IMG/VR virus record: IMGVR_UViG_3300045391_007586
Origin: a virus
Taxonomy: Duplodnaviria > Heunggongvirae > Uroviricota > Caudoviricetes
Length of the DNA: 64,000 bases
Direction: 5' to 3' (one strand)
Part shown: positions 16,301 to 38,712 of the stretch, piece after piece
How the letters are laid out: every line of letters starts with the position of its first letter
How positions within the stretch are numbered: position 1 is the first letter of the stretch
The notes under the pieces: generated by a model
What the model saw: the letters and a program-made list of their open reading frames with translations, nothing else
Database searches by the model: none
What the model was told of the DNA's origin: nothing
Made by a program: the position numbers and the translations under genes

Positions 16301-16321
16301 TATAGGTCGGATTCCCTTGTT

Positions 16322-16359
16322 GGTTGCGACAGGGTTAGTGTCGCAACCGGGAACAGGCG
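16322..16359 (-). promoter_or_regulatory. motif 2 copy (GTTGCGAC-N-GTCGCAAC dyad plus CCGGG..AGGCG)
   Basis: ggttgcgacagggttagtgtcgcaaccgggaacaggcg, ending 22 nt upstream of the ATG at 16300. Confidence 0.45.
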
Positions 16360-16377
16360 TCGGGAGCTGGTTGCTGG

Positions 16378-16587: not shown

Positions 16588-16591
16588 GGCG

Positions 16592-17065: not shown

Positions 17066-17272
17066 TCACCGGGCAACGCTGGCGATTGCGTCCGCCTTCT
17101 CGAACGCCTCGATGGCGTAATCTAGGCGTCCGGCCTTGATGTTCTCGCTCACGACGGCAAACCACGCCACCGCAAACGAGTCGTCGACGAATGACATCGT
17201 TTCCTCAACGGTCTCGCCGGCCAGGAACCCGTTCGTCAAGCGTTTGCGAATCCGGTAGACCACCCGATTCAT
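17066..17272 (-). CDS. hypothetical protein
   Basis: 68 aa; stop overlaps the next start. Confidence 0.45.
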   Translation of the reverse strand: MNRVVYRIRKRLTNGFLAGETVEETMSFVDDSFAVAWFAVVSENIKAGRLDYAIEAFEKADAIASVAR

Positions 17273-17772: not shown

Positions 17773-17841
17773 TTTCCCCTCTCTGGGTCGGTTTTCGGTA
17801 TCGAAATGATCGCAACCGTCGCGAGGCGACGGTGTGGCAAG

Positions 17842-18225
17842 TTACGCGGCGAGCACTTCCGGCATGACGACGGGCAGGCTGCTGGAGCCCTCGGGATCGG
17901 ACAAATAGTCGAACGCTCGCGAGAGCGGAAGCCCACGGTGCGCGTAGGCGTTCAGAGTCGCAATTACGCAGGCTTGCAGGTGATCGGCATCGCGCAGGTG
18001 CGGCGAAACTGTTGGATCGAAGAACTCGACCGTGACGGCATTCTCGTGCAGGCGCAGTTTACCCAGGCGAGGCGGCAGCGCACGCGTGTCGTCTGGATGC
18101 TCGAACTTCACAACCAGGACGTGCGAACCATCGGCGCGCTCGTGGAGCCGGTAGAGGCGCAGATGGTGCTGGCGATAGGCGCGTGCGTGAGCTTGGCGTT
18201 GTTCGGCGTTCAGGTTGAGGCTCAT
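17842..18225 (-). CDS. hypothetical protein
   Basis: 127 aa; motif 2 copy at 18244-18283 upstream. Confidence 0.5.
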   Translation of the reverse strand: MSLNLNAEQRQAHARAYRQHHLRLYRLHERADGSHVLVVKFEHPDDTRALPPRLGKLRLHENAVTVEFFDPTVSPHLRDADHLQACVIATLNAYAHRGLPLSRAFDYLSDPEGSSSLPVVMPEVLAA

Positions 18226-18345
18226 CGTTTTCCCGTCTGGGTTCGTTGTCGATACAGATATGGTCGCAACGCAGACAAGGAAAGGGGGTGGCGAACTACA
18301 TCGCGCCGTGGCATCGCAATCGGCCGGCGCGAAGCCGGCGCGAGG

Positions 18346-18525
18346 CTATGCCGCCTTTGGCAGCACGAGGAAAACACCCCGCTCGCAGACTTCAGTGTTG
18401 AACGCTTCCTCGCCGGCCTGGACGAGCGTGTTGATTGCGTCCGCTCCGGCTTGCGCTTCGTCATCCGCTTCCATCTCGATTGTGTGGCGGACAACTTCCT
18501 CGATCGTAACGACGAATTTGGGCAT
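18346..18525 (-). CDS. small acidic hypothetical protein (59 aa)
   Basis: AGAAGGAGAAAG RBS; MPKFVVTIEEVVRHTIEMEADDEAQAG... Confidence 0.35.
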   Translation of the reverse strand: MPKFVVTIEEVVRHTIEMEADDEAQAGADAINTLVQAGEEAFNTEVCERGVFLVLPKAA

Positions 18526-18554
18526 GGCTTTCTCCTTCTAAAGCTGATCGGGAA

Positions 18555-18824
18555 TCACTTCCAGAAGCCAGGGTTCGGGACGCTCTGCAAGGCACGGCTC
18601 CGAAGCAGGCTCTTTTCACTGTTCAGTTGGCTCTGCGTGAGCCCGATGTGACCGGAAGTGCTCGGGTTGAAGTATCCCGGCATCAAGTCCTTGCGCGCAG
18701 ATCGCTGGCGATACAAGCGCATGTAGTGCTCGGTTGACTTGAAACCGCGGATCGGATGGCCGCTCTTTGGATACGCGCTCGTCGCGGCCGTTGCGAGCAA
18801 AAGCAAAACTGCGAGTTTCCGCAT
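18555..18824 (-). CDS. secreted protein with signal peptide
   Basis: MRKLAVLLLLATAATSAYP signal; motif 2 copy at 18847-18888 upstream. Confidence 0.5.
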   Translation of the reverse strand: MRKLAVLLLLATAATSAYPKSGHPIRGFKSTEHYMRLYRQRSARKDLMPGYFNPSTSGHIGLTQSQLNSEKSLLRSRALQSVPNPGFWK

Positions 18825-19818: not shown

Positions 19819-20141
19819 GCGTCCTCCATCAGAATGAATCCGCAGTAAGCCTTGTCGCGCACGATGATCGCGGGGTGGTCGTATCCATCGGCCGCGCTCG
19901 TCGTCGCCTCAAGAATCCAGCGGCTCGCGTCCCAATCACGCCAGCCAGTCGTTTCCAACGCCTGCTGATAGTGGTAAAGCGACCGGAACTCGACCGTCAC
20001 GGTGTGCAGCCACTCGAAGTGACGCACGCCAAGCAGTGCGATCTCATAGTCGCCCGCGTCGTTGGCAATCTGCTCCTGCTCTTTCTCGGACAGGTTCGAC
20101 GGATACGGGAACGGATAGCCGTTTCTGAGAATCAGTTTCAT
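19815..20141 (-). CDS. hypothetical protein
   Basis: 108 aa; ATGA overlap. Confidence 0.55.
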   Translation of the reverse strand: MKLILRNGYPFPYPSNLSEKEQEQIANDAGDYEIALLGVRHFEWLHTVTVEFRSLYHYQQALETTGWRDWDASRWILEATTSAADGYDHPAIIVRDKAYCGFILMEDA

Positions 20142-20399
20142 GCCGCTTTCTCCTTCAACGTCTTGCCGGGTTCGCGGGTCCGGCAGAATTCAAGCCACGT
20201 GCAGCCGGTCGCCTTGTGCGCCTTCACAAACTCGTTGCGCAGGTCGGCATATCGGATGGCATCCTTCAGCGTGTAGGGGTGGCTGAAGCGGCCTCGAACA
20301 GTCGCGTGCGTGATCCCGTTTTCCCAGGACCAGATTCATGCCGGCCTGCCACACGATGTGATGCGTATCGTTCTGGTAGAGAATGGTTTGCCTGTGCAT
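20138..20399 (-). pseudogene. hypothetical gene interrupted by an apparent frameshift near 20290-20310
   Basis: N-terminal frame MHRQTILYQNDTHHIVWQAGMNLV..., then a second frame continues ...ENGITHATVRGRFSHPYTLKDAIRYADLRNEFVKAHKATGCTWLEFCRTREPGKTLKEKAA, ending with an ATGA overlap onto the next gene. The shift occurs at gggaaaacggg. Confidence 0.4.
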
Positions 20400-20403
20400 C
20401 GCG

Positions 20404-20664
20404 TCACCATTCGATTTCGATGGACTCGATCGCGTCTTCCGCGATGAAGATTTCGCGGTCAAGTCGCCCGCCGTCTTCCGCGGTGAGCGGGTCCGGGTGC
20501 CAGAGGTTCAGGTGAAGAACGCCGGTCTTGCGCACGCTTTCTTCCGTGCTGAAGCTGCCGCCTCGATAGAATTGCCCGCTCTTTGTGCGGACCTGGAACA
20601 CGTATCCCGCACCGCCGTGCTCCGGCTTGTCCGCTTCGTGCAATGCAGCCTGAACGATGCTCAT
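20404..20664 (-). CDS. hypothetical protein
   Basis: Trimmed to the internal ATG (MSIVQAALHEADKPEHGGAGYVFQ...). Confidence 0.45.
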   Translation of the reverse strand: MSIVQAALHEADKPEHGGAGYVFQVRTKSGQFYRGGSFSTEESVRKTGVLHLNLWHPDPLTAEDGGRLDREIFIAEDAIESIEIEW

Positions 20665-21086
20665 GGGCGGCTCCACAGTTCGGACAGGGTGAAATGCGTC
20701 TGGTGGAGACCCTTGCCGTTCTGATGCGACGGCAGATACCAGGCATCGTCCGCTTTCACGGTGAACTCGAACTTCAGGTCCGCCAGAGGCTTGCAGCGGA
20801 ACCAGACGCCCGCCTTGATCAAACCATCCGCAGTGGTGCCCGCGGCGAGAGCTCCGGCGATCGTGATCTTCACGGTCTTGCAGACATCCGGTTGCGGCTT
20901 GTCGACATAGGCGAGCGTGTCGCACTCCGGGCAGCGCCCTACCGGCGACGGGTCTCCCGGCGTCAGAACGCAGTCCTCGACATTCCGCGTCGCGCTGGCA
21001 GGCCCTTGCCAATCGCAATCGCTGCACGAACAGGGCGCGTCGTCTTCGACGCCATCAACCATTGCTGTGTATGTTTCGGTCGTCAT
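20661..21086 (-). CDS. Cys-rich (zinc-ribbon) hypothetical protein
   Basis: CSCSDCDW...CPECD; motif 2 copy at 21101-21138 and motif 1 copy at 21144-21163 upstream. Confidence 0.5.
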   Translation of the reverse strand: MTTETYTAMVDGVEDDAPCSCSDCDWQGPASATRNVEDCVLTPGDPSPVGRCPECDTLAYVDKPQPDVCKTVKITIAGALAAGTTADGLIKAGVWFRCKPLADLKFEFTVKADDAWYLPSHQNGKGLHQTHFTLSELWSRP

Positions 21087-21176
21087 GTTTGACTCGTTGT
21101 GTTGTTTCGGTATGTGTATGGTCGCGATTGCAGACAGGACTATCAATCAGCTACGACTGATTGTCCTGTCAAACCG

Positions 21177-21914
21177 TTACTCGTCCGAGCCGAGCAGCGT
21201 GGCGGCTCGCGTCTGCGCGGTCGCCAGCTCGCCAAGCGCCGTGCGCAACGCCGCCACTTGCTCCGCGCACTCTGGCGCATCGGTGTAAATGTCAGCGGCA
21301 GCAGCCGAATCAACAGCGCCGGCCGCTTTGCACAGGTCTTTCAGCGCCCGGATAGCGTCATGCCGATCAACGATCGGCTGGCCCCACTTCTCTACGATGT
21401 CGCGGATGACCCAATCGAGCAGGATCGCCTGGCCGGTCGTGCAACGGCCCCAGATGGTCATCCCCATGAAGTCGCGCGCCACAATCTCGCCGCGCTCTTC
21501 CAGCTCGCGCGCAAGCTGGTCGCTGACGATCCAGTGCTCGTATGCCTCGTTTGTATGAGGCTGTATGTCGTTCCCGTTTGCGAACGACTCCAGCTCGCCC
21601 TCCGTCTCCAGGTGTTCAAGGTAGGCTGTCAGCAGCGCTTCCTTGTCCTCGTGGTCGTAGCACTCGAAGCCAGCATCCGTCAGCGCCTCGACGAGCTTGG
21701 TCCGATCCCACTCCTGGCGCAGATAGTCCTCGACCGGCTCCTTGAAGTCGTCCTGCACGCACAGATCGCGCAGCTCGTCCTCGTCGATGTCCAGCGCACG
21801 GGCGGCGTCATAGTTCCGCGCAAGATCGCCGATAAGGCTGCTGACGCATGCGAAAACATGCTGGCCGACGAACGTGCGGCACTTTTCCTGGAGCTTCGAT
21901 TCGCTGTCTTTCAT
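21177..21914 (-). CDS. hypothetical acidic protein
   Basis: Trimmed to ATG at 21914 with AAAGAGGA RBS; motifs 2 and 1 at 21941-22008 upstream. Confidence 0.55.
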   Translation of the reverse strand: MKDSESKLQEKCRTFVGQHVFACVSSLIGDLARNYDAARALDIDEDELRDLCVQDDFKEPVEDYLRQEWDRTKLVEALTDAGFECYDHEDKEALLTAYLEHLETEGELESFANGNDIQPHTNEAYEHWIVSDQLARELEERGEIVARDFMGMTIWGRCTTGQAILLDWVIRDIVEKWGQPIVDRHDAIRALKDLCKAAGAVDSAAAADIYTDAPECAEQVAALRTALGELATAQTRAATLLGSDE

Positions 21915-22022
21915 GGTGTCCTCTTTCGCGCACATCGCGCGTCGTTGTTTCGGTAGACGTATATTCGCGCCCACGCGTAGGAGCGTCACTCATCTACGAC
22001 TGATAGCCTGCACAAAAGCCAA

Positions 22023-22298
22023 TCAAAGATGGCGAGCCAGCTCCTTCCCCACGACTTCAGCGAGGCGTTCGTCCCGCTCCTTCAGCGTGACGCGCTCGCC
22101 GGCCAGCATCCACTCTTCCGCCTGATCGTAGGACTCGGTGATCTCGCCGGACTCCATGTTCTCCCACGCGTCGTTGATGTCGTCCGACCACTCCTTGATC
22201 TTCTCGATGGCAGTCGGGAATGACATTTCGTGCGGAATGCCCAACAGGCTCGCGTTGGCTTGCGCGATGGCGTGGCGGATGTCGTCAGTGAGTGTCAT
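22023..22298 (-). CDS. hypothetical protein
   Basis: 91 aa acidic. Confidence 0.5.
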   Translation of the reverse strand: MTLTDDIRHAIAQANASLLGIPHEMSFPTAIEKIKEWSDDINDAWENMESGEITESYDQAEEWMLAGERVTLKERDERLAEVVGKELARHL

Positions 22299-22491
22299 GG
22301 CGTTGTTCCCGACTTGGCAGGACGTTCAGAAAACCTTCGAAGCGCTTCCACAGGCTCGGCCGGCGCTCAATGTTGCGCGCCAGCTCTTCGCGCGTCATAC
22401 CCTCGCGCACCAGTTCCATGAAGACTTCGTTGGCACCAGCGATGTTGCGCTGCTGATTGTAAAAGATCGCGAGCTGCTCGTCATCGGTCGT
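22285..22491 (-). CDS. hypothetical protein
   Basis: GTG start after GGAAGAGG RBS. Confidence 0.4.
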   Translation of the reverse strand, partial: TTDDEQLAIFYNQQRNIAGANEVFMELVREGMTREELARNIERRPSLWKRFEGFLNVLPSREQRHDTH

Positions 22492-22793
22492 CACGCCTCT
22501 TCCTCCACGAGAACGCCGAAATACGCGTAGCACTCTTCGCCCGCTTGCTCGCTCCAGCGCCGACGAAGATCGAGGTCCGCGAACAGCGCGTCCGCAGCCT
22601 CGTGCAACGCCTCATAGTCTTTGGGCGTCGCCTGCTTGTCGCCCATGTAGCCGGACCATCCGTTGATCTCGTCGTGCAGTCCATTCAGGACCGCATCGGA
22701 GCGCATGTTCCGGCAGAGTGGAACCGCGAACGTCTCACCGCCAAAGCCCTGAAAGTAGTCGAGCAGACACGTATCGAGGTATTTGATGTTCAT
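22491..22793 (-). CDS. hypothetical protein
   Basis: Start set at MNIKYLD so that the motif 2 copy (22809-22848) lies upstream, as at the other seven sites. Confidence 0.45.
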   Translation of the reverse strand: MNIKYLDTCLLDYFQGFGGETFAVPLCRNMRSDAVLNGLHDEINGWSGYMGDKQATPKDYEALHEAADALFADLDLRRRWSEQAGEECYAYFGVLVEEEA

Positions 22794-22925
22794 AGTCTTG
22801 TCGATATTGGTTGTGACAGACATATGCTCTCAACCGGGTATAGGCGCGACCAGTCAGTTTTGTGGCGATCGTGAAGGCGCGCTATCAGCGCACACTGTGG
22901 ATGGCCGCACGGGCGCACTGAATCC

Positions 22926-24332
22926 CTATAACGAACGCGCCAGCGTCCCGACCGCCTCTACGCTTCGCTCGAACTCGCATGTCCAAGGGTGGCCGTAGTT
23001 CAGCCGGACACAATTTCGGAATCCGCGTGTTGCCGAAAAGATCGGGCCAGGCGCAATGCCGATGCCCTGCTCCAGCGACAGCTCGAAAAGGCGTAGCGCG
23101 TCGGCCTGCGGCGGCAACTCCAACCAAAGAAAATAGCCTCCCTGTGGGCGCGCAACTCGCGTCCCAGACGGAAAGAATCTTTCGACGGCCTCCACCATCT
23201 TGTCTTGTTGAACGGCAAGATTTCTCCGGAGTTGGTGCAGATGGCGATTGTAGCCGCGACCCTGCAAAATATCGGCAATGGCCAACTGTGACGGCACGAA
23301 CGTCGATATATTGGTCATCCACTTCGCCCGCGCGACCTGCTGCGTGAAGCGGCCCGCCGCAACCCATCCCACGCGATAACCTGGCGCGAGGCTCTTTGAG
23401 AAGGAACTGCAATGGAGCACCAACCCTTTCCGATCGAATGTCTTGGATGGGCGCGGACGCGACGCTCCGAAATACAGTTCGGCGTATACGTCATCCTCGA
23501 TCAGCGGCACGTCATGAGCGGCCAGCAGTGTAACCAATGCATTCTTCGCCGCGTCCGACATAGTGACGCCGGTCGGGTTCTGAAAAGACGTCATGAACAA
23601 GCACGCGCGGATTGGATGCCGCTGAAGCGCGTCAGCAAGCGCTGAAAGATCGAGACCTTCCGTCGGATCGATGGGAATCTCGATGGCCTTCAGTCGTAGC
23701 CTATCGAGTATCTGAAGCGTTGCGTAGAAAGCCGGTGCCTGGATTGCGACCGCATCGCCGGGACTGGTTACGGTCTGCAAACAAAGCGTCAGCGCTTCCA
23801 ACGCTCCATTCGTCACGACAACTTCATCGATTGGCACCGCGATTCCCGCATCTAGGTAGCGACGGACAATCTGGCGCCGCAAGCTCTCGTCACCGAAGTG
23901 CAGTTCGATGCGGGTCGCGCCGGAACGCGTTTTGCGCATGACCGATGCCAATGCACGGTCGAGCCGATTCAATGGGAATGAGTCTGAACTTGGAAGCGCC
24001 GAGCCAAGCGGCACAATGTCGGGATTCTCGATCGAATCCAACACCCGAAACACGAGATCGTCTGAATCAGCCGTCAGGGGCACGCATGTCGGTCGGACGA
24101 TCGACGATCCAAGCAATGTCTGACAGGCACCCGGCACGACGAAATAGCCGGAACGAGGCCGCGCCTCAATGAGGCCGTCGCGTTCCAACAAGTAATAAGC
24201 CTGAAACACCGTTCCCGCGCTCGCGCCATACGACTTGGTCGCCTGACGCACAGACGGGAGACGCATGCCTGGGACAAGATGTCCGCACCGAATTAGCCCG
24301 GCAATTTGCGCCGCCAGTTTCTTGTAACGCAT
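22926..24332 (-). CDS. MocR/GntR-family transcriptional regulator with PLP-dependent aminotransferase-like domain
   Basis: N-terminal GntR wHTH (VRQATKSYGASAGTVFQAYYLLERDGLIEARPRSGYFV) and a class-I aminotransferase fold. Confidence 0.85.
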   Translation of the reverse strand: MRYKKLAAQIAGLIRCGHLVPGMRLPSVRQATKSYGASAGTVFQAYYLLERDGLIEARPRSGYFVVPGACQTLLGSSIVRPTCVPLTADSDDLVFRVLDSIENPDIVPLGSALPSSDSFPLNRLDRALASVMRKTRSGATRIELHFGDESLRRQIVRRYLDAGIAVPIDEVVVTNGALEALTLCLQTVTSPGDAVAIQAPAFYATLQILDRLRLKAIEIPIDPTEGLDLSALADALQRHPIRACLFMTSFQNPTGVTMSDAAKNALVTLLAAHDVPLIEDDVYAELYFGASRPRPSKTFDRKGLVLHCSSFSKSLAPGYRVGWVAAGRFTQQVARAKWMTNISTFVPSQLAIADILQGRGYNRHLHQLRRNLAVQQDKMVEAVERFFPSGTRVARPQGGYFLWLELPPQADALRLFELSLEQGIGIAPGPIFSATRGFRNCVRLNYGHPWTCEFERSVEAVGTLARSL

Positions 24333-24608
24333 GGTTCGAATACCTTCGCCGCATTGTCGGTCGTCCGGTTGCCCCCTTTGAATTTGCGACGGTCAATGGT
24401 GGCGAGGGCGCCGCTCGACATGGGTCGGTCTTATTAGAAATTAGTGGCAGAACAGAGGCTCCTCGTTTGTCCCGCTGGTGTGCGCCACACTTTGCGCTGT
24501 CGCTCGGGCAGAAAGTCAACCTTAAACGATGTATTACCACCTAAAACGCCCTTCATGTCAATAGGTTGTCTTGCCACTATTTGGGTGGTATATGATGGGA
24601 GGAATGAA

Positions 24609-24968
24609 GTGCATCAGGAAGAACAAACACCACTGTCAAAATCCGTGGGGAAAGCGATTGCAAACCGCCGGGTTCTGGCGAATCTGACTCAGGAGCAGGT
24701 CGCCGAAAAGCTAGGGATCGGGCAGGAAGCTATCTCGCGGATGGAGAGAGGCGTTGCGAGTCCAACGGTCACCCGTTTGGCGGAGTTGGCCGACATATAC
24801 AAATGCGATCTCAGTCAGTTGCTTACTGAAGCCTCGGATCGGGAAGACGACCAAGCCAAGATCATCTCCGCCATCATCGGTCGGTTACCCAGTAACGATC
24901 GACTCCTACTGATCGAATGGCTAAAGGCATTTGCCGACAGGCTTCTATCGGCGTCTAGACCAAATTAG
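24609..24968 (+). CDS. XRE-family (Cro/CI-type) HTH transcriptional regulator
   Basis: GTG start after GGGAGG RBS; LANLTQEQVAEKLGIGQEAISRMERG HTH; candidate TTGTCT-17-TATATG promoter upstream. Confidence 0.75.
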   Translation: MHQEEQTPLSKSVGKAIANRRVLANLTQEQVAEKLGIGQEAISRMERGVASPTVTRLAELADIYKCDLSQLLTEASDREDDQAKIISAIIGRLPSNDRLLLIEWLKAFADRLLSASRPN

Positions 24969-26572
24969 ACCCGGTAAACTTGCAATTTCGAAGTCTTGGT
25001 TAGCGAGTGTCGACGCAATGAACCACCTCGTTCGGCATCTCGCGCCCTCTGAAGTCTCCCCGCAAGACGTGACGGTCCACCGCTCTCAAGGAATGCCTCC
25101 AGCCGGGCAATAGTCAGCGCGCGACTGTAAAAGAAACCTTGTCCAAAATCGGCTCTGGAGGCGTGGAGTGCCTGGTGGTGAGCTGCGCTTTCGACTCCGT
25201 CGGCCACGAGCATGGCGCCTACGTCGTGAGCGACATCGGCCATCGTCGCAAGGCGCGACACGCGCTCGTCGCTGTCAAGAGTGAGCACCTGCCTGTCCAT
25301 CTTGATCACATCGAAATCGAAGTTCCTGAGCAAGCGGAAGTTGATCGGGCCTAAGCCGGCACCAGCGAGCGCAAATCGAACCCCGTCTTTCCTCAAGAAT
25401 GCCAACGATTCCAGCACCCGTGACGCGGTGTCCGCGCAATCACTCTCCGTTACTTCCAGAACCAGATGGGGCAATATTCCATTGGCCGACTCCTGCACGT
25501 CTGATACGAAGCTGTCGGCGGCCATTTGAGCAGCGGAGACCTTCACCGAGATATAGAACGAATTCGCAACGCTCAACTCGGCGAAATCGCGGGCTACGGC
25601 AGCAAGCATGAATCGAGTCAGAGGGCCAACTACTTTGCTGTGTTCGAGACGATTCATGAAATGCGCTGGCCCTCCCAGACCAAATTCAAGATTGTCCCAA
25701 CGAAGCAGCGCTTCAATGCCGACGCACTTGCCAGTGCGGATACGGATCACTGGCTGATACTCCAGGCGAAACTCTCCGCGCTTCAATCCTCGTCGAGCTG
25801 CGCGAGCAAGTCTTGCATCCGGCGTAAATTGCCATCTGTAGAGCGCCCAACATCCAAGGACTAGCAGACAAATAAGCCCCAGACCGAGCAACACGTAGGC
25901 GCCGAAACGCACGGCCCAAGGATCGAAAGAAGGTGCACTGATCGCTTGCGACGACGGCTCGACAGGAAATATCCTGCTGCCCTGCACAGGCACGACCCGC
26001 TCAACACACGCGCGACCCTCTCCGCATTCGGCCAGAATCGGCAACCTTGGCGCCGATTGGATAGCATCCCCAGCAGGCGCCGACACGGGCGCCGGGGCCA
26101 ACGCGTCCATGCTAAACGGCACGCTGGGCTGAGCCACGATAGAAGGGCTCACTGCTACGGAAGCGTCAGGAATAACGTTTGTGTCGGCCATGCTGCCAAG
26201 CGCCCCACCGCCGATCTCCAACGGGTCGAGCATTGAAATGCAACGCAGTTGGTGAATGTCCACCTGTCCTATCAGGCCTGCGACCGGCCCCGCCAGCGTT
26301 GCGGGTGCCGGTAGCATGACGGGAAGCGTGCAGACGGTGCCGAATTGCAGACGCGCAACGTGCTTCGGAGCAGTCATCTCCGACAATCCTTGCGCAAAGG
26401 CCGCGATCCGACGCCCCACGTCATCGATCACACTACCCGGGCTCGTGTTCGCATGCGCGGGAGGTTCCAATGCGGCGAGAAGAAAAAGCATGACGAACAG
26501 TGATTTAGTCATGCGAAAAGATGGTTTATCGCCCGGTCTCACGGCGTCACGTTGGTGGCTTATGGCAATCAT
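24965..26572 (-). CDS. membrane-anchored EAL-domain c-di-GMP phosphodiesterase (CSS-like periplasmic sensor plus EAL)
   Basis: LEYQPVIRIRTGKCVGIEALLRW EAL signature; N-terminal hydrophobic segments; start could alternatively be ATG at 26512. Confidence 0.8.
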   Translation of the reverse strand: MIAISHQRDAVRPGDKPSFRMTKSLFVMLFLLAALEPPAHANTSPGSVIDDVGRRIAAFAQGLSEMTAPKHVARLQFGTVCTLPVMLPAPATLAGPVAGLIGQVDIHQLRCISMLDPLEIGGGALGSMADTNVIPDASVAVSPSIVAQPSVPFSMDALAPAPVSAPAGDAIQSAPRLPILAECGEGRACVERVVPVQGSRIFPVEPSSQAISAPSFDPWAVRFGAYVLLGLGLICLLVLGCWALYRWQFTPDARLARAARRGLKRGEFRLEYQPVIRIRTGKCVGIEALLRWDNLEFGLGGPAHFMNRLEHSKVVGPLTRFMLAAVARDFAELSVANSFYISVKVSAAQMAADSFVSDVQESANGILPHLVLEVTESDCADTASRVLESLAFLRKDGVRFALAGAGLGPINFRLLRNFDFDVIKMDRQVLTLDSDERVSRLATMADVAHDVGAMLVADGVESAAHHQALHASRADFGQGFFYSRALTIARLEAFLESGGPSRLAGRLQRARDAERGGSLRRHSLTKTSKLQVYRV

Positions 26573-26643
26573 TCTTTCTCTATATGCGCACGATGCGCTT
26601 GGCTTTGTCGGGCGGCTCGTCGCTGCGTTCCCAACTGTGAATT

Positions 26644-27348
26644 TCAGAGTAGCCGTGCCGCGATGGCGAGCCGCATGGGCCGTGCAAGAAAGTATCCCTG
26701 CGCAGTTGTGACGCCCAGCGCCTTCAACGCATTCAACTCGTCGGCGGTCTCGACACCCTCCGCGACAATCGTGCTGCCCGTCTCGTTGGCGAACGAGACC
26801 ATCGCCGACACAAGTGCCCGTCTGTTGGAATGGACGTCGATGCTTCGGATCAAGCTCGAATCAAGCTTGATCAACTCGGGATGCAGATTGATGACGTGCC
26901 GCATGTTGGCGAAGCCTGCACCCACATCATCCACAGCAATCCGGACTGAACGGCGTCGCAGCGGTTCGAGCGCCCGGATCAGTTTGTTGTAGTCGGGGAC
27001 GCAGGCATGTTCCGTGATCTCCAGGACAATCCGATTGGTCTCCATGTCGGCAAACACATCCTCGAGTTCGCCACTCAAGATTGTTCCCGGGGACGCATTG
27101 ACCGCTAAATAGAAATCCGGAACCGCCGCCAACCCCGCAAGTGCCTTGCGAATTGCCTTGAGTTCCAGAGGCACGGTCATGCCGACCTTGACAGCATCGG
27201 CGAACCACTGGCTTGGCGCACGCGTCGGCGTGACTGAGAACCGAGATAGGCACTCAAGGCCGACGACGCGACGAGGGTCCAGCGAGTAGATCGGCTGGTA
27301 AACGATGGATGGCTCGTCTGCTTTCAGCACATCCTGTATGCGCGCCAT
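26644..27348 (-). CDS. EAL-domain protein (c-di-GMP phosphodiesterase-like, ECL variant)
   Basis: IVYQPIYSLDPRRVVGLECLSRF...; start trimmed to MARIQDVL (the longer ORF to 27561 is possible, but a minus-strand terminator-like hairpin plus T7 at about 27436-27470 argues for the short form). Confidence 0.7.
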   Translation of the reverse strand: MARIQDVLKADEPSIVYQPIYSLDPRRVVGLECLSRFSVTPTRAPSQWFADAVKVGMTVPLELKAIRKALAGLAAVPDFYLAVNASPGTILSGELEDVFADMETNRIVLEITEHACVPDYNKLIRALEPLRRRSVRIAVDDVGAGFANMRHVINLHPELIKLDSSLIRSIDVHSNRRALVSAMVSFANETGSTIVAEGVETADELNALKALGVTTAQGYFLARPMRLAIAARLL

Positions 27349-27902
27349 CGTCGCTTCACGTTCTCGAACAAGTGTGGCGTTTGGCACTTTTATACCCAGC
27401 GAATCAGATGGAGCCCTAGCGTCCGATTGGGCATCACGAAAAAAAGCGCCGCGTAGACGGCGCCCAAAAGAAACTTCCAGTTTCGAAGTTGGCCAACTGG
27501 AAATTCCGAGGCCATAGCAACCAGGTCGCTTCACGACGTTGGGGACGTATTGCTTGACCATTCAGGCGCCGGTCACCAAACGCATATACGGAATTGCGTT
27601 CGGCGCTACCTCTCCTCCCGCGCGTGACCATGACGGTGGTGGCACATCGGTCCGCTGTTTGGTGTGTGGCACCGCGTATCACGCGCTCGTATGGTTAGCA
27701 GTGTGAAGGATGGGGGTGCAAAAAACAGACTCAGATTTACGCAAGAAAAACTGCATCAGACGTGACGCCCGCCGCGCGCATCGCCCAATTAAGCGGCGCG
27801 AACGCGTGTTCAAAGAATGCGACCGCCTGGGTGACGGCACGCCCGAATGAGCTAACATACTGGCGCCCACAGACAGGAACCCAAACACGAAAAGGAGAAT
27901 TT

Positions 27903-28160
27903 ATGGCAATGTCGGAACAGAAGAGAGCAGCCTTGACGCGCATTCAGCAGGCGCAATCACGCGCGGCATACGAGCAAGACGTGTGGAGCCGTGCAATGAA
28001 GTCTCACGGCGATTTCATCCAATCCTGCCTCAACGCCGGGATCGACTACAACTCGGCAAAGCGCCAATTTGCGGAGATTAACCGCGACCACCAAGAACGC
28101 TTCTCGAAGGTTCTGGAGGAAATGTTCGAGGCAGAAAAGGCGTATCGCGAGACTCCGTGA
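27903..28160 (+). CDS. hypothetical protein (85 aa)
   Basis: AAAGGAGAA RBS; MAMSEQKRAALTRIQQAQSRAAYE... Confidence 0.4.
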   Translation: MAMSEQKRAALTRIQQAQSRAAYEQDVWSRAMKSHGDFIQSCLNAGIDYNSAKRQFAEINRDHQERFSKVLEEMFEAEKAYRETP

Positions 28161-28355
28161 CGGACGCTCGACTGACGCGCGCACAGCCCGCGACGCGGGC
28201 TTCCTCAATGCGGTCAATATCAACACATACCCGAACCGCGCAGCCCGTCTAAACGCGTCTAAATCGGTCCCGCCTCGGCGCTTTCGGAGCAAAAAAGAAG
28301 GCGACCGAAGCCGCCTTTCAAAGCACCGAAACGCCACCAAATTCTGTTGTTGACC

Positions 28356-28399
28356 GTCCCATACGCGAGCGGCTTTGATCGACGGCTCGCGTATGGGAC
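28356..28399. repeat. perfect 15-bp inverted repeat (GTCCCATACGCGAGC-N14-GCTCGCGTATGGGAC)
   Basis: Read directly from the sequence; lies between convergent gene ends at the right edge of the cargo island. Confidence 0.6.
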
Positions 28400-28424
28400 G
28401 GATGTTATCCGTCCCGTCTGCGCG

Positions 28425-29429
28425 CTACTCCGTCTTGAGGGTCAGCCCGAGCTTCGTCAAGATCGTCGTCAGAAGCACGCTGTCCGGGTTCGGCTTCATG
28501 ACGCCTTTCTCGCGAACCGTGAGCTTGAGCAGCGGAAAGAGCTGGAAAATCTGGTTCGCTTGCGCGCTCGCCGTGCCCGGTGCATACGGACGGGCGAGGT
28601 AGTTCTTCTGGAGGTTGCCGCCGACGCCCGAAGACAACTGGCCGTCCTCCGCGAGCACCTTGAAGGCGCGCTGCATGTATTCGTTGAGCTTGCCGCCGTT
28701 GCGCACCCATCCGAAGAGCTGCACCGCCTTCTCGCCGACCTTCTTGGCCGTCTTGTTCGGGTCGTCCAGATCACGCAGCAGCGCCGAGCGCTTGGCTTCG
28801 AGCTCTTCCGGCGAAAGCAGCGCATCGGCCGTCTCCATGATCAGGTAGTCGTGCGCCTTGTCCCCGAGCTTCGCCATGATCTTCTCCGACTTCTTGGCGA
28901 ACGGGTTGCGCAGCACCGAAGGTGTCTTCGGCTTGCTCGCTTCCGCGGGTGCCACCTTCGTGCCCGCCAGGTCCGTTTGCGGGGCGTCCGACGCTTCCGC
29001 CTTCTCGTCGCCCGCGTCATCCGTCGAAGCACTCACGTCGCTCGCCATCGAGCGCATTTCCGCGCCGGTCGGAAACGGCCAGTGAGGCAAGGGAGTAACT
29101 GCCGGGGTTTCGGGCGTCGCGCTCGCGTCCGCAGCTTCGGGCGCTTTCTCGCCCGCGCCCTTCTTTTTGGAGCGACGCGGAAGCGAATTGACCACGACGG
29201 CGGGCGCGCTGCTCGCGACCTTCTCGGTCTTTCCGGCGCGGGCGCTCTTCTCTGCCGGCGCTTCGATTTCGGCGGGCGTCTCGTCCGCCTTCGGCTCGAT
29301 CATCCCGCTCGACATGACGGGCGCACTGCCGCTCTCGGCCATTTCCTTCATCAGGTCGTCGAGAATCTGGTTCTCGTCCACGCCGCGCGCTGCGTTGATA
29401 GGCGCCTGAGTCGTCGTTTGAACTTGCAT
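28425..29429 (-). CDS. hypothetical protein, Ala/Pro/Glu-rich N-terminal half
   Basis: 334 aa with ordinary composition; the overlapping plus-strand ORF is Arg-rich and was rejected; motif 1 variant at 29470-29495 upstream. Confidence 0.5.
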   Translation of the reverse strand: MQVQTTTQAPINAARGVDENQILDDLMKEMAESGSAPVMSSGMIEPKADETPAEIEAPAEKSARAGKTEKVASSAPAVVVNSLPRRSKKKGAGEKAPEAADASATPETPAVTPLPHWPFPTGAEMRSMASDVSASTDDAGDEKAEASDAPQTDLAGTKVAPAEASKPKTPSVLRNPFAKKSEKIMAKLGDKAHDYLIMETADALLSPEELEAKRSALLRDLDDPNKTAKKVGEKAVQLFGWVRNGGKLNEYMQRAFKVLAEDGQLSSGVGGNLQKNYLARPYAPGTASAQANQIFQLFPLLKLTVREKGVMKPNPDSVLLTTILTKLGLTLKTE

Positions 29430-29558
29430 GGTGTCACTCCTTAGTGAGTCGTTCGGTTTCGGTTTTTGTTTTGTCGCTCAGTTGCGACAGAACGAACTTT
29501 AAAGACCCAACTTTGGCAGTAGTGACAGGCGAGGCACGTTTCCAATGAGGTCGCCAGA

Positions 29559-29583
29559 AACGAAAAAGGCGAGCTCGCGCCCG
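29559..29583 (-). terminator. possible terminator hairpin with U-tract (minus strand)
   Basis: ggcgagctcgcgcccgcc imperfect stem preceded on plus by gaaaaag (a U-tract on minus). Confidence 0.3.
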
Positions 29584-29619
29584 CCGTGGATACAGTCGCC
29601 CGCTTGGCGCGGGCCTCAG

Positions 29620-29967
29620 TCAGTGACGCACTTCGTCTTCGGTCATGTAGCTGCCGGGGCTGCGGTGCGCCGCATGGTCCAGGTTGTCCAGGCACTTGCC
29701 GAACGCGATCATGTGCGCGCTGCGTTGATCCGCCGCTTCGTCGTGCCCGTAGTTGTAGGCGAACTGCATGATGCCGCCGATCCAGCTATTGCGGGTCTCG
29801 TCGTCAATGTTGCTCGGCAGCGGCGTGCCGCGGTTCTGGAAGCCGATCTCGGCTTCCTGGCCGACCATCCTGCACATTTCCAGCTTCTTCGCTTCGTTGC
29901 CGTAGCTGAAGGCGTGCGCGGCGTTGGCGGACAGTGCGATCAGGGTTGCGATCAGAGTTTTCTTCAT
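29620..29967 (-). CDS. secreted protein with signal peptide
   Basis: MKKTLIATLIALSANAAHA. Confidence 0.55.
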   Translation of the reverse strand: MKKTLIATLIALSANAAHAFSYGNEAKKLEMCRMVGQEAEIGFQNRGTPLPSNIDDETRNSWIGGIMQFAYNYGHDEAADQRSAHMIAFGKCLDNLDHAAHRSPGSYMTEDEVRH

Positions 29968-30143
29968 GGGCGGTCTCCGCGTTGTTCGTCATGAGAGACA
30001 TGATCGAGTGCTGTTCTTGGACCCACAACGGGCTTGCAGGCAAAAAGAAAGGCGGGTGATCCCCGCCCTTCGAGATCGAGCCGCATGATAGCGAAGCTCG
30101 ATGCGCTTGCCAACAGTCACCTATGACTGAGAATGCCGGCGCT

Positions 30144-30374
30144 TCAGCCAAGCCCCAACGCAGCACGAATGTCCCGCTGCGCCTGCGCGTAGCCTTCGCC
30201 ATAAGCGATGTTGGCGATTCGGGCCGCTCGTTCGCAGTCTTCCATGTTGGAGAACCGTGAGTTCGGCGAAAGGGTGCCGCCGTAGTAGCTGCACTCCACT
30301 TGATGACACCCTGCCACATACGGCTTCCCTTCCGAGTCGTGTCCGGCCTTGAACGGGTCACGCTTGCTCATCAT
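30144..30374 (-). CDS. hypothetical protein
   Basis: 76 aa; ATGA overlap with the exonuclease gene. Confidence 0.5.
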   Translation of the reverse strand: MMSKRDPFKAGHDSEGKPYVAGCHQVECSYYGGTLSPNSRFSNMEDCERAARIANIAYGEGYAQAQRDIRAALGLG

Positions 30375-30949
30375 TCACTCCTTTCCGGCCACGCCGCGAA
30401 GATTGTCCAGTCGTTGTCGGGCTTGTAGAACCCGCGCTCCACGCCCGCGAAGAAGCACGCCATCATGCGCTCAACGTCATACTCTGCCCCGTGCGCTAAG
30501 GACGGGTCGTAGGGCAGATTGAGCGCGAAGCAGAGCTCGCCAAGACGCGGTGACTTCCCGTCTGGCGTCGCCCATCGCGCATGCGTCAACGTGCAGAATC
30601 CGATCAGGTCCGGCTTGACGTGCAGACCGAGGCGCTTGAGCTCGCCATTCGTGAACGGCGCGTCGAACCCGCCGTTGTGCATCACGATCAGGTCCGACTT
30701 GTTCAGCTCTTCCACGAGTTTCGGCGCCACGTCGACCCACTTGGGCATCCCGACCAGATCGTCGTAGGCGATCCCATGAACCGCCTGCGCCTTTGCATCG
30801 ATGGCGCGCTCGGGGTCGATGCGCGTCACGAACTTGTCCACGGGCTTGCGGGTATCGAAGTCGTAGTGCAGCAGGCCCACTTCGATGATCCGATGGCCGT
30901 CCACCCATTTCAGTCCGGTGGTTTCGGTGTCGTATCCTGAGACGATCAT
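30371..30949 (-). CDS. DnaQ-like (DEDD) 3'-5' exonuclease
   Basis: YDTETTG, HNGGFD and HGAEYD exo motifs. Confidence 0.8.
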   Translation of the reverse strand: MIVSGYDTETTGLKWVDGHRIIEVGLLHYDFDTRKPVDKFVTRIDPERAIDAKAQAVHGIAYDDLVGMPKWVDVAPKLVEELNKSDLIVMHNGGFDAPFTNGELKRLGLHVKPDLIGFCTLTHARWATPDGKSPRLGELCFALNLPYDPSLAHGAEYDVERMMACFFAGVERGFYKPDNDWTIFAAWPERSE

Positions 30950-31089
30950 CCCGCCGCTCCTTTCCGCTTCCTGCGCTCGTGCAGCTTCACTTCAAAGACG
31001 GTCACAACGACGAGCGTCGCGACGACGCCAAGTCCAACGCCGAAGAGAAACGTGTCGACCACGTGGCCCAAAGTGCAAAACATCGTCAT
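30946..31089 (-). CDS. small membrane protein (47 aa)
   Basis: MTMFCTLGHVVDTFLFGVGLGVVATLVVVTVFEVKL...; GAGG RBS; ATGA overlap. Confidence 0.35.
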   Translation of the reverse strand: MTMFCTLGHVVDTFLFGVGLGVVATLVVVTVFEVKLHERRKRKGAAG

Positions 31090-31097
31090 GGCTCGCC

Positions 31098-31514
31098 TCA
31101 GTCGCAGGTGCCGCCGTCCGAATCCGTCTCGGCCGGCTCGTCAACGATGGTCGTGATGGCTTCCTCATTCGGAAGGCGGAACTGCGTCTCGGGCGATCCC
31201 ATGCGCTCGATGGCGGATGCCAGACCGGCGCTTTGCTCCGGCGTGAGGGCGCCATCGGTCAAGTCGGTCCCGACAATCGGAGCGAAGAACGGCCGCAGAA
31301 TCTCCTGTGCCTTGTCCTCACCCATCGTGCTTTCGATGTGTGCCTGCGTTCGCGCCAATGCCGCCCGCCAGTCGAACGAGCTCGACTGCGACAGGGCTTT
31401 GCCGCTGATCTCTGCGGCGAACCGCAGAAGGTTGTTGACCGGCGCTTTCACTTTCGAGCGGTTGGCTGCAACGACGATCTCTCGTGCCGTGAGACCGTTG
31501 ATACGAAGGGACAT
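31098..31514 (-). CDS. hypothetical protein
   Basis: 138 aa. Confidence 0.5.
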   Translation of the reverse strand: MSLRINGLTAREIVVAANRSKVKAPVNNLLRFAAEISGKALSQSSSFDWRAALARTQAHIESTMGEDKAQEILRPFFAPIVGTDLTDGALTPEQSAGLASAIERMGSPETQFRLPNEEAITTIVDEPAETDSDGGTCD

Positions 31515-31536
31515 GCGAATCTCCTTGATGAAAATT

Positions 31537-31566
31537 GCGGTATCGGTCAGTTACGACTGATACCGC
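31537..31566 (-). promoter_or_regulatory. motif 1 copy embedded in a 30-bp palindrome
   Basis: gcggtatcggtcagttacgactgataccgc, 23 nt upstream of the ATG at 31514. Confidence 0.5.
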
Positions 31567-31591
31567 ATTGAAACCTACAGGTTGTGGATCG

Positions 31592-32377
31592 TCACTTCAC
31601 ATTGACCATCGGGCGAACATCGCCAGTGCCGACGATCATGGTGCAGCCCTGATGCGAGGCGCACGCCTGCAACGCCATGTTGTATTCGTGTTGCAGGTAG
31701 GCCGGCGTGAGCGATTGCGTCAGCTTTTCGTTCGCCTGGGCTTCCTGCTCTTTCACCTGGACGAGCTGCTTGGCGGTCTGCACCTGCTTTTCAGCCATGA
31801 TCGAATTGCGGATCGCGTCCTCGACCGACGGGTCGGTGTGGATCGTCCGCACGATGACGTTCGTGACCGTGAACGTGTTCGGGTTGTCCTTGTCCAGCCG
31901 CGACTGCAACTCAGCCTTGATCATCGATTCCAGCGGGCCACGGTTCGTGTGCAGCGTCAGACTGTCGAAGTGCGACACGGAGTCGTTGATAACGCCCGAG
32001 GCGACGTTCTGGATCAAGACGTAGCCCGGACGCACGAAGCCCTCACCCGAGAGTTCGGCCGACTGGCCGGCGCGGCTCGCCTGGAAGTTCGGCAACGCGG
32101 CCGGGTTCGCGCGATAGTAGATCGTCACGTCCAAGTCCTTGAGCGTCAGGTTGTCCTTCGCCCGCGGAGTCAGCCCGCCGATGTCGACCGTCGTTTCCTT
32201 CGCCGTGTAGATCGTTAGATGCGACAGGATCGCGGTGTAGAAGCCTGGCTGCTCGACGGTCGGCTGAATCTGGCCGAATTGCGTGCGCACGCCGACCTCT
32301 CCCGAGTCGATGAAGCCGCAGCCGGTGAAGAAAAACGGCATCAGAACCGCCAAAACTACGAGAATGAGTCGCTTCAT
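31592..32377 (-). CDS. SPFH/band-7 (prohibitin-like) domain lipoprotein
   Basis: Lipobox FFFTGC; SPFH domain pattern (EVGVRTQFGQI...TKDNLTL.DLDVTIYYRA...). Confidence 0.8.
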   Translation of the reverse strand: MKRLILVVLAVLMPFFFTGCGFIDSGEVGVRTQFGQIQPTVEQPGFYTAILSHLTIYTAKETTVDIGGLTPRAKDNLTLKDLDVTIYYRANPAALPNFQASRAGQSAELSGEGFVRPGYVLIQNVASGVINDSVSHFDSLTLHTNRGPLESMIKAELQSRLDKDNPNTFTVTNVIVRTIHTDPSVEDAIRNSIMAEKQVQTAKQLVQVKEQEAQANEKLTQSLTPAYLQHEYNMALQACASHQGCTMIVGTGDVRPMVNVK

Positions 32378-33980: not shown

Positions 33981-34091
33981 GATCTCCAATTCCCTGAAAA
34001 GTGATGCGCTGACACTCAGCGCTGACTGATATTCTACAGAAAAAGAAAGACGACGCAAGCGCGTTTGACGGCGTTTGCGTCGTTGCCAGGT

Positions 34092-35474
34092 TCAAACCGC
34101 CTTGATCGGGATCGTGCGGCGCCGCGGTGTTTCTTCGTGCTGGAGCAGGTTGCCCCAGATGTCGCGGCGCTCCGGTGGCAGCGTGGGTGCGCCGATATAC
34201 GTCGGGATGAAGCCCGTCATCCGCTCAAAGCTCAGAGCGAACAGGACGATGTTGTCCGAGTAGGAGTTCGCGCACGAGGCGTTCCAGTAGTCCCCTTCGA
34301 GGAACATGCACGAGCCCTTGCAAAGCTGAAGCACCGGACAGCCCGAGCAGTTCGGCCGATTCCGCCAGTGAGCAGCTGAATGCACGCGCACCTGATCCAT
34401 ATCAGCGATGTTGCCGGCGCAGTGCGATGTGCCGTTCGGAGCCGTTTCCACAGCGCTCACGTTCTGGCAGGTCAGCACGTTGCCGCGCAGGTCGATCGCC
34501 AGCACATGCGGGTCATCCATGCCGCACTTCTGCCCCAGGAAGCGCGCCTCGCGATGTGAGAGGACGCTGCGTGTGAAGCTGTCGATCTTCTCAATGACGC
34601 CGGGAAAGCCAATGTCTCCGCCAGTCGAGTAGATGTCGTTGAACGCTTCACGCCGGAACGCGAAGTGCTCGGCTTTCGTATCCAGAGAGCTGCCGTATCC
34701 GCCTTCGTCGTAGGCGTCGACCACACTCCCCTCTCCGAGAATCACGTTCGGGTCGCCCGTGAACTTGACGAAAAACTCGTGGATCGCCTTGCGACTCGTA
34801 TTTGCGCGGTTGAGCATCGCATTGAAGGAAATCCGGCCAAGCGGCCTGAGCGCGCGATACAGACCGAGAATCGCCTCACGCGTCTCGGGCACTTCGAGAG
34901 GATCGGGGCCGCGCACGTGCTGACCCGGACCATCGTGCGAGATTGCAACCGCAAAGCAGTTGCCAATCAGCCACGACGCGATCTCTTCCGTCATCAGGGA
35001 GCCATTCGTGATGATGGAGTAGCGCGGCTTCGTCTTCCACTCCCGGAAACGTTCGTTGATGGCTTCCACAAGCGGACGCAAGGTCTTGATGTAGACCAGA
35101 GGCTCGCCGCCCCAGAATTCGATCTTGAGCCCCGCAGCCTCGTCAAATTCGAGCGCGTCCAGGCGACGCATGAAAGCCTCGATGTCCTTGCGGCTCGTCT
35201 CCGGTGGGCGTTCGACAAAGCGTTGCGAGCAATACTCGCAGGAGTAGTTGCACGAAAGCCCGAGCTGGATCTTCAGCAGGCGCACGTGACGCGACTTCGA
35301 GAGCGGCGCGTCGATCGAGAATGGAACCGCCTCGGGCCGATCTTCGACCCGCTGATCGGCGCCAGGATACTCGAACACGGTGCCATTCTCCGCGCGCAGC
35401 GTATTCGTCTCGTTGTCGTATTCGAATTTGGCTCGCGTGCCGTCCTGCTTGGCCGCGATGATTGTAAAGAGCAT
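34092..35474 (-). CDS. radical SAM enzyme with C-terminal SPASM domain (anSME-like peptide or protein maturase)
   Basis: CNYSCEYC (CxxxCxxC) radical SAM motif; C-terminal Cys cluster CSGCPVLQLCKGSC...C; ATG at 35474 with AAGGAG RBS formed by the last two codons (aag gag) of the upstream gene. Confidence 0.85.
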   Translation of the reverse strand: MLFTIIAAKQDGTRAKFEYDNETNTLRAENGTVFEYPGADQRVEDRPEAVPFSIDAPLSKSRHVRLLKIQLGLSCNYSCEYCSQRFVERPPETSRKDIEAFMRRLDALEFDEAAGLKIEFWGGEPLVYIKTLRPLVEAINERFREWKTKPRYSIITNGSLMTEEIASWLIGNCFAVAISHDGPGQHVRGPDPLEVPETREAILGLYRALRPLGRISFNAMLNRANTSRKAIHEFFVKFTGDPNVILGEGSVVDAYDEGGYGSSLDTKAEHFAFRREAFNDIYSTGGDIGFPGVIEKIDSFTRSVLSHREARFLGQKCGMDDPHVLAIDLRGNVLTCQNVSAVETAPNGTSHCAGNIADMDQVRVHSAAHWRNRPNCSGCPVLQLCKGSCMFLEGDYWNASCANSYSDNIVLFALSFERMTGFIPTYIGAPTLPPERRDIWGNLLQHEETPRRRTIPIKAV

Positions 35475-35476
35475 GG

Positions 35477-38701: not shown

Positions 38702-38712
38702 GCTGCTCCCCC

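Follow-up and report, generated by a model that had tools for sequence, protein, structure and literature searches.

A c-di-GMP signalling cassette as candidate moron-type cargo of a Nickievirus-like Paraburkholderia phage

Do bacterial-type signalling genes lodged in the gene array of a tailed phage form a unit with a role in the carrier cell, or are they passengers in a region prone to recombination? The question arises from a 64,000-nucleotide (nt) stretch of Caudoviricetes DNA (IMG/VR record IMGVR_UViG_3300045391_007586, hereafter the window), where a sequence-only reading had placed an island of host-like regulators and EAL-domain proteins at 22860-28425 and interpreted it as a moron or auxiliary module. 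With a little more confidence than doubt, we interpret the region as a self-contained, horizontally mobile and self-regulated cassette for signalling through c-di-GMP (cyclic diguanosine monophosphate), carried as moron-type cargo by a Nickievirus-like Paraburkholderia phage. What was observed directly is which genes the cassette contains, where it ends, that it occurs both in phages and in chromosomal islands but not in the more distant phage relatives, that it was recently exchanged between phages, and that its EAL and MocR genes are under purifying selection. The moron interpretation agrees with the existence of homologues in Paraburkholderia chromosomes, a patchy presence in phages and an atypical codon composition.

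All four genes that had been named were confirmed by Pfam between 22926 and 27387. The gene order is a non-coding leader, a stand-alone EAL gene and a degenerate membrane EAL gene, followed by the convergent XRE gene and the MocR regulator gene, in a cassette of approximately 4.5-4.8 kb. The components are listed below; loci compared with the window carry L numbers.

22926-24332, minus strand: MocR-type regulator, 468 amino acids (aa) (Pfam GntR 1.5e-12, Aminotran_1_2 2.8e-33)
24333-24608, no strand: MocR-XRE divergent control region, 276 bp, from an alignment of six copies and a repeat search
24609-24968, plus strand: XRE/Cro-CI-type helix-turn-helix (HTH) regulator, 119 aa, GTG start (Pfam HTH_3 1.6e-15)
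24965-26572, minus strand: membrane EAL protein, 535 aa, probable start M21 at 26512 (Pfam EAL 3.1e-48)
26644-27387, minus strand: stand-alone EAL protein, 247 aa from GTG at 27387 or 234 aa from ATG at 27348 (Pfam EAL 7.1e-47)
27419-27760, minus strand: non-coding leader of the stand-alone EAL gene, conserved in chromosomal copies L004, L011 and L012

Comparison of the copies supports a cassette at about 22920-27417 and assigns orf85 and the inverted repeat of the proposed island to the phage backbone. The DNA common to all copies is 22920-27417, the leader extends to approximately 27760 in L004, L011 and L012, and the true right end of the cassette is accordingly placed by these alignments at about 27420-27760. 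Beyond it lies orf85, which marks the right limit and has homologues at the same position in two related phages that carry the cassette (L001 and L006) and in an island-less relative from Burkholderia gladioli (L007). The perfect 15-bp inverted repeat that had been taken as the right edge of the island is real and somewhat longer, with 17-nt arms (28354-28401), but comparison with the relatives places it in the backbone. It is not an island edge because it is situated between the convergent backbone genes orf85 and p334; an identical repeat is found in L001 and a different hairpin occupies the same spot in L007. A repeat search detected no terminal inverted or direct repeats and no attachment (att) sites at 22920 or at 27420-27760. 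A transposon or integrative element with att or insertion sequence (IS)-type ends was rejected on this basis, the only strong inverted repeat being the local hairpin outside the cassette. Features to the right of the cassette, together with the recently exchanged block considered further below, are as follows.

27903-28160, plus strand: orf85, phage backbone gene outside the cassette
28317-28298, minus strand: intrinsic terminator downstream of p334, from the terminator scan
28354-28370 and 28385-28401, minus strand: inverted repeat (backbone hairpin), perfect 17-nt arms and 14-nt loop
28425-29429, minus strand: p334, phage backbone gene
22312-28935, no strand: recently exchanged block, comprising the cassette with p110, orf85, the 3′-end of p334 and a portion of p82

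The composition of the region is not uniform. A GC content of about 55% against about 63% in the flanks had been estimated, and the direction of this difference held while its size did not: GC is 57.7% for the island but 60.3% outside it (60.3 and 60.5% in the two flanks), a gap of 2.6 points rather than 8. The island is among the two lowest-GC stretches of its length in the window; the other, 10800-16700, has approximately 57.4%. The contrast is much clearer for GC at third codon positions (GC3), which is 0.59-0.69 in the four cassette genes and 0.75-0.85 in the surrounding phage genes. It is also low in the chromosomal copies of the cassette, while most of the Paraburkholderia chromosomal genes sampled are at 0.75-0.84 (one gene for a methyl-accepting chemotaxis protein is at 0.70). 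The gap to the phage genes and to the chromosomal neighbours indicates that the cassette is compositionally foreign to both phage and host.

The same four genes are present at the same locus in two related phages, L001 in a 310-kb Paraburkholderia nemoris contig (JAQQEA010000005.1) and L006 in a Logan assembly. The cassette is absent from the syntenic locus in the more distant L007 (a 111-kb B. gladioli contig), L008 (a 104-kb metagenome contig) and Pseudomonas phage nickie. These cassette-less relatives keep the synteny of an exonuclease gene, p334 and orf85, followed by small genes.

Homologues were also found in host genomes, where at least eight chromosomal contexts of Paraburkholderia have the cassette next to an integrase or IS element. 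The chromosomal and island copies in P. dipogonis, P. sediminicola, P. madseniana, P. tagetis, another Paraburkholderia and metagenomes are 77-87% identical in nucleotide sequence (most of them 79-86%) and adjoin integrases, a resolvase or IS elements. The highest identity is in P. fungorum ATCC BAA-463 (CP010026; L017 = 3,813,719-3,835,326), where 6.5 kb are 95.6% identical to window positions 22390-28935. This stretch lies inside a P4-type integrase/AlpA island (L017 locus 6670-14182), and is 93-97% identical to the phages. Besides the cassette it contains p110, orf85, a fragment from the 3′-end of p334 and a piece of the exonuclease gene in inverted orientation. It is a rearranged remnant of the present phage lineage that carries the cassette. 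Some chromosomal copies have further peculiarities. XRE and the control region have been precisely deleted in L003 (12398-12401) and L013 (approximately 12346-12355), so that the MocR and membrane EAL genes are directly adjacent. In P. tagetis RG36 (L011, 3274-13779), the EAL leader borders on a fragment of a phage exonuclease gene, and between leader and EAL lies an insert of about 5.5 kb that encodes pilus proteins of the chaperone-usher type (PapD_N, Usher).

The exchanged block is 91-96% identical to L001 and L006, compared with 70-80% for the backbone. Likewise, synonymous divergence (dS) between the window and L001/L006 is 0.04-0.2 in the cassette genes and 0.58-0.77 in backbone genes. 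The contrast with the backbone in both measures indicates that the block was swapped between phage lineages long after they diverged. Within the block, orf85 is 54-69% identical to the L001 allele despite flanks of about 96% identity, and 97-99% identical to the L006 allele, a pattern that reads as a small allelic replacement.

Both cassette EAL proteins score far above the cut-off for the EAL domain (PF00563, 31.3 bits), at 160 and 165 bits. They had been described as two c-di-GMP phosphodiesterases, a description that fits the stand-alone protein and not its membrane partner. The stand-alone protein keeps all of the catalytic and metal-binding motifs when aligned to the active BlrP1 and TBD1265 (ECL..R, N, ExxE, DD, KxD, EGVE and QG), and apparently is a catalytically competent c-di-GMP phosphodiesterase. 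Its best match, 98% identical, is in the P. nemoris contig. The closest relatives outside the cassette are GAF-EAL sensor phosphodiesterases of Xanthomonadales and Chitinimonas, with 52-59% identity. In tblastn searches, in-frame homology to the GAF-EAL proteins stops at approximately 27438, at the foot of the leader terminator, and a decayed GAF-coding remnant in the leader was thereby ruled out. Because the homology ends there and no GAF remnant lies upstream, the stand-alone EAL protein is taken to be a 5′-truncated derivative of a GAF-EAL protein that has no sensor.

In the membrane EAL protein, a signal-like N-terminus is followed by about 190 aa of periplasmic sequence rich in Pro, Ala and Ser, then by a single strong transmembrane (TM) segment at residues 218-247 and a cytoplasmic EAL domain. 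AlphaFold2, run with 35 database homologues, modelled the EAL domain confidently. Alignment with the active protein 3u2e shows other residues in place of metal ligands (N to K, DD to AG, and EGVE to DGVE); these replacements are invariant in 7 orthologues and are kept across the 35-member family, paralogues included. As the metal ligands are lost in every orthologue, the protein is probably a pseudo-enzyme, and it is best read as a sensor, scaffold or receptor. The family was seen only in Paraburkholderia and Trinickia and has four invariant periplasmic cysteines, which have only a loose resemblance to the CSS-motif domain. Assignment of the periplasmic region to a CSS domain of the Escherichia coli PdeC type was rejected, as no Pfam CSS-domain match was obtained and the EAL domain is degenerate. 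NCBIfam model PRK10551, whose cut-off is 461 bits, gave 118 bits and aligned to the TM and EAL parts only. The periplasmic region found just 2 significant clusters among 1.84 billion representatives. A membrane pseudo-EAL paralogue with 37% identity is encoded directly upstream of a GAF-GGDEF-EAL gene on plasmid pBN5 of P. aromaticivorans BN5 (L025, 4857-8529), an arrangement that suggests that the pairing of a pseudo-EAL with an EAL enzyme recurs.

The MocR protein combines an N-terminal GntR winged HTH domain with a fold-type-I aminotransferase-like effector domain. The SFSK motif with the lysine for pyridoxal 5′-phosphate (PLP) is kept, and the SK...PGxRxGW motif aligns to the aminotransferase 1x0m. 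It is below the curated NCBIfam cut-offs of every named subfamily (YczR, PdxR, EhuR, GabR, PtsJ and MocR sensu stricto), scoring 244 against 487 for YczR and 223 against 320 for PdxR. The XRE gene is convergent with the membrane EAL gene, their ends overlapping by 4 nt, and a 119-aa call was likewise obtained in L001 and L017. Within the control region that separates XRE from MocR, the block 24548-24575 upstream of XRE is near-invariant in all copies of the six-copy alignment. An inverted repeat, TACCACCTAAA / TTTGGGTGGTA at 24535-24545 and 24580-24590, has its arms 34 nt apart and overlaps a promoter-like TTGTCT-17 nt-TG-n-TATATG element identified by eye in that block. The repeat is a putative operator.

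At the other end of the cassette, the EAL leader finishes in two conserved hairpins and an intrinsic terminator (27465-27444, terminator scan). Its fold energy has a z score of -2.5, and one compensatory pair is present. The leader could be an attenuator or a small RNA. A search of 22000-30000 against Rfam returned no riboswitch, its sole match being the sub-threshold Burkholderia small RNA ncS54 (21 bits against a gathering score of 43), and a c-di-GMP riboswitch (GEMM-I or GEMM-II) or another known RNA in the leader was rejected. Through the terminators at 28317-28298 and 27465-27444 the cassette would be shielded from phage transcription that starts upstream, whereas downstream of MocR no clear terminator was seen.

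These features suggest how the cassette might work. Having no ancestral GAF sensor, the stand-alone EAL protein would be an unregulated enzyme that hydrolyses c-di-GMP to pGpG, and from its conserved catalytic residues it would be predicted to lower c-di-GMP in the host. The membrane paralogue would be unable to bind the catalytic metals and could serve as a sensor, scaffold or c-di-GMP-binding partner, its periplasmic four-cysteine region perhaps reading an envelope cue. XRE and the PLP-dependent MocR may set expression from their shared 276-bp control region, with the flanking terminators keeping the cassette independent of phage transcription. The pseudo-EAL, XRE and MocR would then modulate when and where the EAL enzyme lowers c-di-GMP. 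A phage-carrying cell with less c-di-GMP would be expected to be more motile and to form less matrix or biofilm, to the gain of the carrier cell or of phage spread. Any benefit to the phage may come from carrier cells that disperse or move more readily, have less matrix or display their receptors differently.

Several points weigh against a functional, phage-serving cassette. Chromosomal copies are decayed, with XRE deleted in L003 and L013, MocR truncated in L011 and the membrane EAL gene frameshifted in L013. The membrane EAL gene evolves fast, its ratio of nonsynonymous to synonymous divergence (dN/dS) between phage copies being 0.64-0.81, and its constraint could therefore be relaxed. The AlphaFold2 model gives the periplasmic part of this protein a pLDDT <50. 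The sequence-only reading had also credited XRE with its own sigma-70-like promoter, which is plausible from the near-invariant block and its promoter-like element, but no site in the MocR-XRE control region reached the threshold of a sigma-70 consensus scan. Neither an integrase nor a repressor/CI module was found among the window proteins scanned, and the record of nickie, an isolated relative from wastewater, gives no sign of lysogeny. Lysogeny, and with it a benefit by lysogenic conversion, is consequently hypothetical.

The decay of several chromosomal copies and the fast evolution of the membrane EAL also favour the main rival explanation, neutral hitch-hiking. Here the cassette would be selfish or neutral passenger DNA in a recombination-prone variable region, spread by homologous recombination between co-infecting phages and chromosomal remnants, and would have no selected phage function. 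We regard this as possible, though we are more inclined to doubt it than to accept it. The insertion site is indeed a plasticity region, a variable stretch of small early-type genes where L007 and nickie hold different small genes. Furthermore, the high-identity block runs past the cassette into backbone genes, as simple recombination would give, and the same block forms the rearranged phage remnant in the P. fungorum chromosome. However, all four open reading frames (ORFs) are intact in the three phage copies (window, L001 and L006), and a packaged genome would presumably not keep some 5 kb of DNA that served no purpose. Moreover, the active EAL and MocR genes are under clear purifying selection since the phage copies diverged, with dN/dS of 0.08-0.13 for EAL and 0.19-0.24 for MocR; the corresponding value for XRE is 0.25-0.45.

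A more elaborate form of the preferred interpretation, the self-regulated cassette, goes further than we would readily follow, and as a whole we consider it unlikely. The EAL and the membrane pseudo-EAL would form a Paraburkholderia-specific enzyme/pseudo-enzyme pair in which sensing of an envelope cue (for example redox state) by the four invariant cysteines of the degenerate partner gates or localises the phosphodiesterase. The phage would have captured a ready-made, self-regulated switch that couples the state of the host envelope to c-di-GMP and controls dispersal, receptor display or superinfection in carrier cells, and the cassette would shuttle between phages and islands via remnants such as that in P. 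fungorum.

The nature of the carrier bears on a further alternative. The window is part of a large tailed-phage genome, and the cassette is surrounded by a Nickievirus-like replication region, in keeping with the phage gene-array context originally described. The principal backbone marker is the following.

58711-62115: DnaE-type polymerase, phage backbone

Other window genes encode both ribonucleotide reductase subunits, SbcCD, RecA, a protein resembling single-stranded DNA-binding protein (SSB), RtcB, a tail-fibre-like protein, an ATP-dependent ligase, a ParB-like protein and a P-loop ATPase. The DnaE protein shares approximately 40-44% identity with its counterparts in three phages, ANB28 of Stenotrophomonas, RHEph10 of Rhizobium and nickie of Pseudomonas, and approximately 37% with the polymerases of SSU5-type elements. 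Close relatives are scarce in the databases. Neither the INPHARED phages nor the PLSDB plasmids matched 20000-32000 by megablast, exact-protein look-ups with window proteins had no recorded match, scans of IMG/VR for p334, the exonuclease and both EAL proteins returned no relatives, and scans of GTDB and metagenomes with the backbone exonuclease or p334 found none.

It is conceivable from these results, though very unlikely in our estimation, that the carrier is not a free phage and is instead a plasmid-like or integrated, possibly defective, Paraburkholderia element, with the cassette as ordinary accessory cargo of a resident replicon. The relatives come only from bacterial assemblies and metagenomes (the P. 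nemoris contig of 310 kb, the B. gladioli contig of 111 kb, which was seen in four samples, and a JGI contig of 174 kb), nucleotide-level matches in IMG/VR and INPHARED are lacking, the window has ParB-like and P-loop ATPase genes, and SSU5-type phage-plasmids are distant DnaE relatives. Nevertheless, gene content and synteny match nickie, an isolated phage of virulent type (dnaQ, the p334 homologue and small genes), a tail-fibre-like gene is present, and such a carrier would alter the lifestyle of the element and not the nature of the cassette.

Highly improbable, finally, is a counter-defence role suggested by the sequence-only reading, in which the EAL protein of the phage would destroy cyclic-dinucleotide immune signals (of the cyclic-oligonucleotide-based anti-phage signalling system, CBASS, type or in c-di-GMP-dependent defence): what favours it is that a phage here carries a nuclease acting on a cyclic dinucleotide, an idea for which no tool gave direct support, but EAL domains are specific for c-di-GMP, the known anti-CBASS proteins Acb1 and Acb2 are not known to be related, the cassette with its own regulators also occurs in chromosomal islands that have no phage genes, two terminators insulate it from early phage transcription, and PADLOC gave only generic HTH matches, all of them to XRE, and left MocR and the EAL proteins unmatched, so that assignment to a known anti-phage defence or counter-defence system was rejected.

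Cargo of this general kind, host signalling genes carried by phages, is already familiar, and the concept of phage morons and lysogenic-conversion cargo has been reviewed (PMC3594210). Like morons, the cassette consists of host-type genes unrelated to virion production, is found in some but not all related phages, differs in composition, is preceded by terminators and brings its own regulators. It is unlike them in having four genes with two dedicated regulators instead of one gene, and in its location among small genes of the early/replication region and not by an attachment site or in a late operon; lysogeny, too, is hypothetical for its carrier.

EAL genes are very rare in isolated phage genomes, with EAL matches in 68 of 50,697 INPHARED records, mostly fragments or contaminant contigs. 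Citrobacter phage Chris1 encodes a PAS-GGDEF-EAL protein (ON041214) and is the clearest precedent for a phage EAL gene; this protein, phrog_11823 and phrog_22021 are likewise EAL-domain proteins annotated in phages, rare and uncharacterised. The Chris1 protein differs in that one gene encodes all its domains and adjoins the integrase gene in a temperate phage of 45 kb, with only about 25% identity and with neither a pseudo-EAL partner nor MocR or XRE regulators. Among bacterial enzymes, E. coli PdeH (YhjH) is similarly a single-domain stand-alone EAL protein with the complete set of catalytic motifs. Stand-alone EAL proteins of the PdeH type act as a constitutive c-di-GMP sink that favours motility, and the cassette protein would be expected to do likewise. 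The cassette protein is not an ortholog of PdeH, being a 5′ truncation of the GAF-EAL type.

The regulators of the cassette also have recognisable counterparts. As in GabR, PdxR, EhuR and YczR, its MocR protein joins a GntR winged HTH to an aminotransferase-like domain with the PLP lysine and is divergent from a neighbouring gene, but it falls under the curated cut-off of each of these subfamilies. The intergenic inverted repeat, with its spaced arms, recalls GabR-type operators. For the membrane protein, degenerate EAL domains are known as c-di-GMP receptors or regulators in LapD, FimX, YdiV and BluF (e.g. PMC3509220, PMC5052742). It resembles these in retaining the fold while the metal-binding residues are lost family-wide, and such a loss points away from catalysis, towards binding or regulation. 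Unlike them it has no HAMP, GGDEF, BLUF or REC domain, and instead has a signal peptide, a cysteine-bearing low-complexity periplasmic region and one TM segment.

Enzymes of c-di-GMP turnover are also found on other mobile elements, as the SXT/R391 integrative and conjugative elements carry the diguanylate cyclases DgcK and DgcL, which raise c-di-GMP. Here too a mobile element imports c-di-GMP turnover genes able to reset host behaviour, but in place of cyclases on conjugative elements there is a phosphodiesterase with a pseudo-enzyme, on a phage and on integrase/IS islands. Phage interference with c-di-GMP signalling is known, one instance being peptides that bind to YfiN, a cyclase (PMC8085984). 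Our literature searches returned no characterised phage-borne EAL enzyme and no MocR-EAL cassette, and the combination of MocR, EAL and c-di-GMP gave no papers.

Other parts of the window also vary or share sequence with chromosomal islands. Approximately 6 kb at 34000-39961, encoding a radical-SAM protein, a 331-aa ORF, a tail-fibre-like protein of 395 aa, small ORFs and RtcB, are replaced by only about 29 nt in L001 and L006, and this looks like a second variable cargo region. An ORF of 486 aa at 17191-18651 (plus strand) has a GC3 of 0.64 and no Pfam, PHROG or NCBIfam match. Promoters with a phage motif had been proposed on both sides of the island. The one on the right corresponds to an exact 19-mer, TTCGTTCTGTCGCAACTGA, which occurs at 13843-13861 and 29478-29496, both on the minus strand, against a chance expectation of 0.01. 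Its copies lie 25-60 nt upstream of two minus-strand gene starts, and it is a candidate phage-specific promoter or operator. The left motif at 22809-22848 was not sustained, as it is only a 10-nt partial match inside the coding sequence of p110. The small protein p115 (29620-29967, minus strand) has a signal peptide, MKKTLIATLIALSANAAHA, and its homologue, 86% identical, adjoins the MocR gene in the P. dipogonis chromosomal island (L002, 15510-15854). It is thus a second gene common to phage and island, in a different relative position.

Recent gene flow between phage and chromosome is documented in both directions, and the locus provides a testable case in which an apparently active, sensor-less phosphodiesterase, a conserved pseudo-enzyme partner and two regulators move as one unit. 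This unit travels between a lineage of large phages and islands in the chromosomes of Paraburkholderia. Should it be functional, these phages would import a complete regulatory switch and not a single enzyme, and may thereby reset biofilm formation and motility in soil and rhizosphere bacteria.

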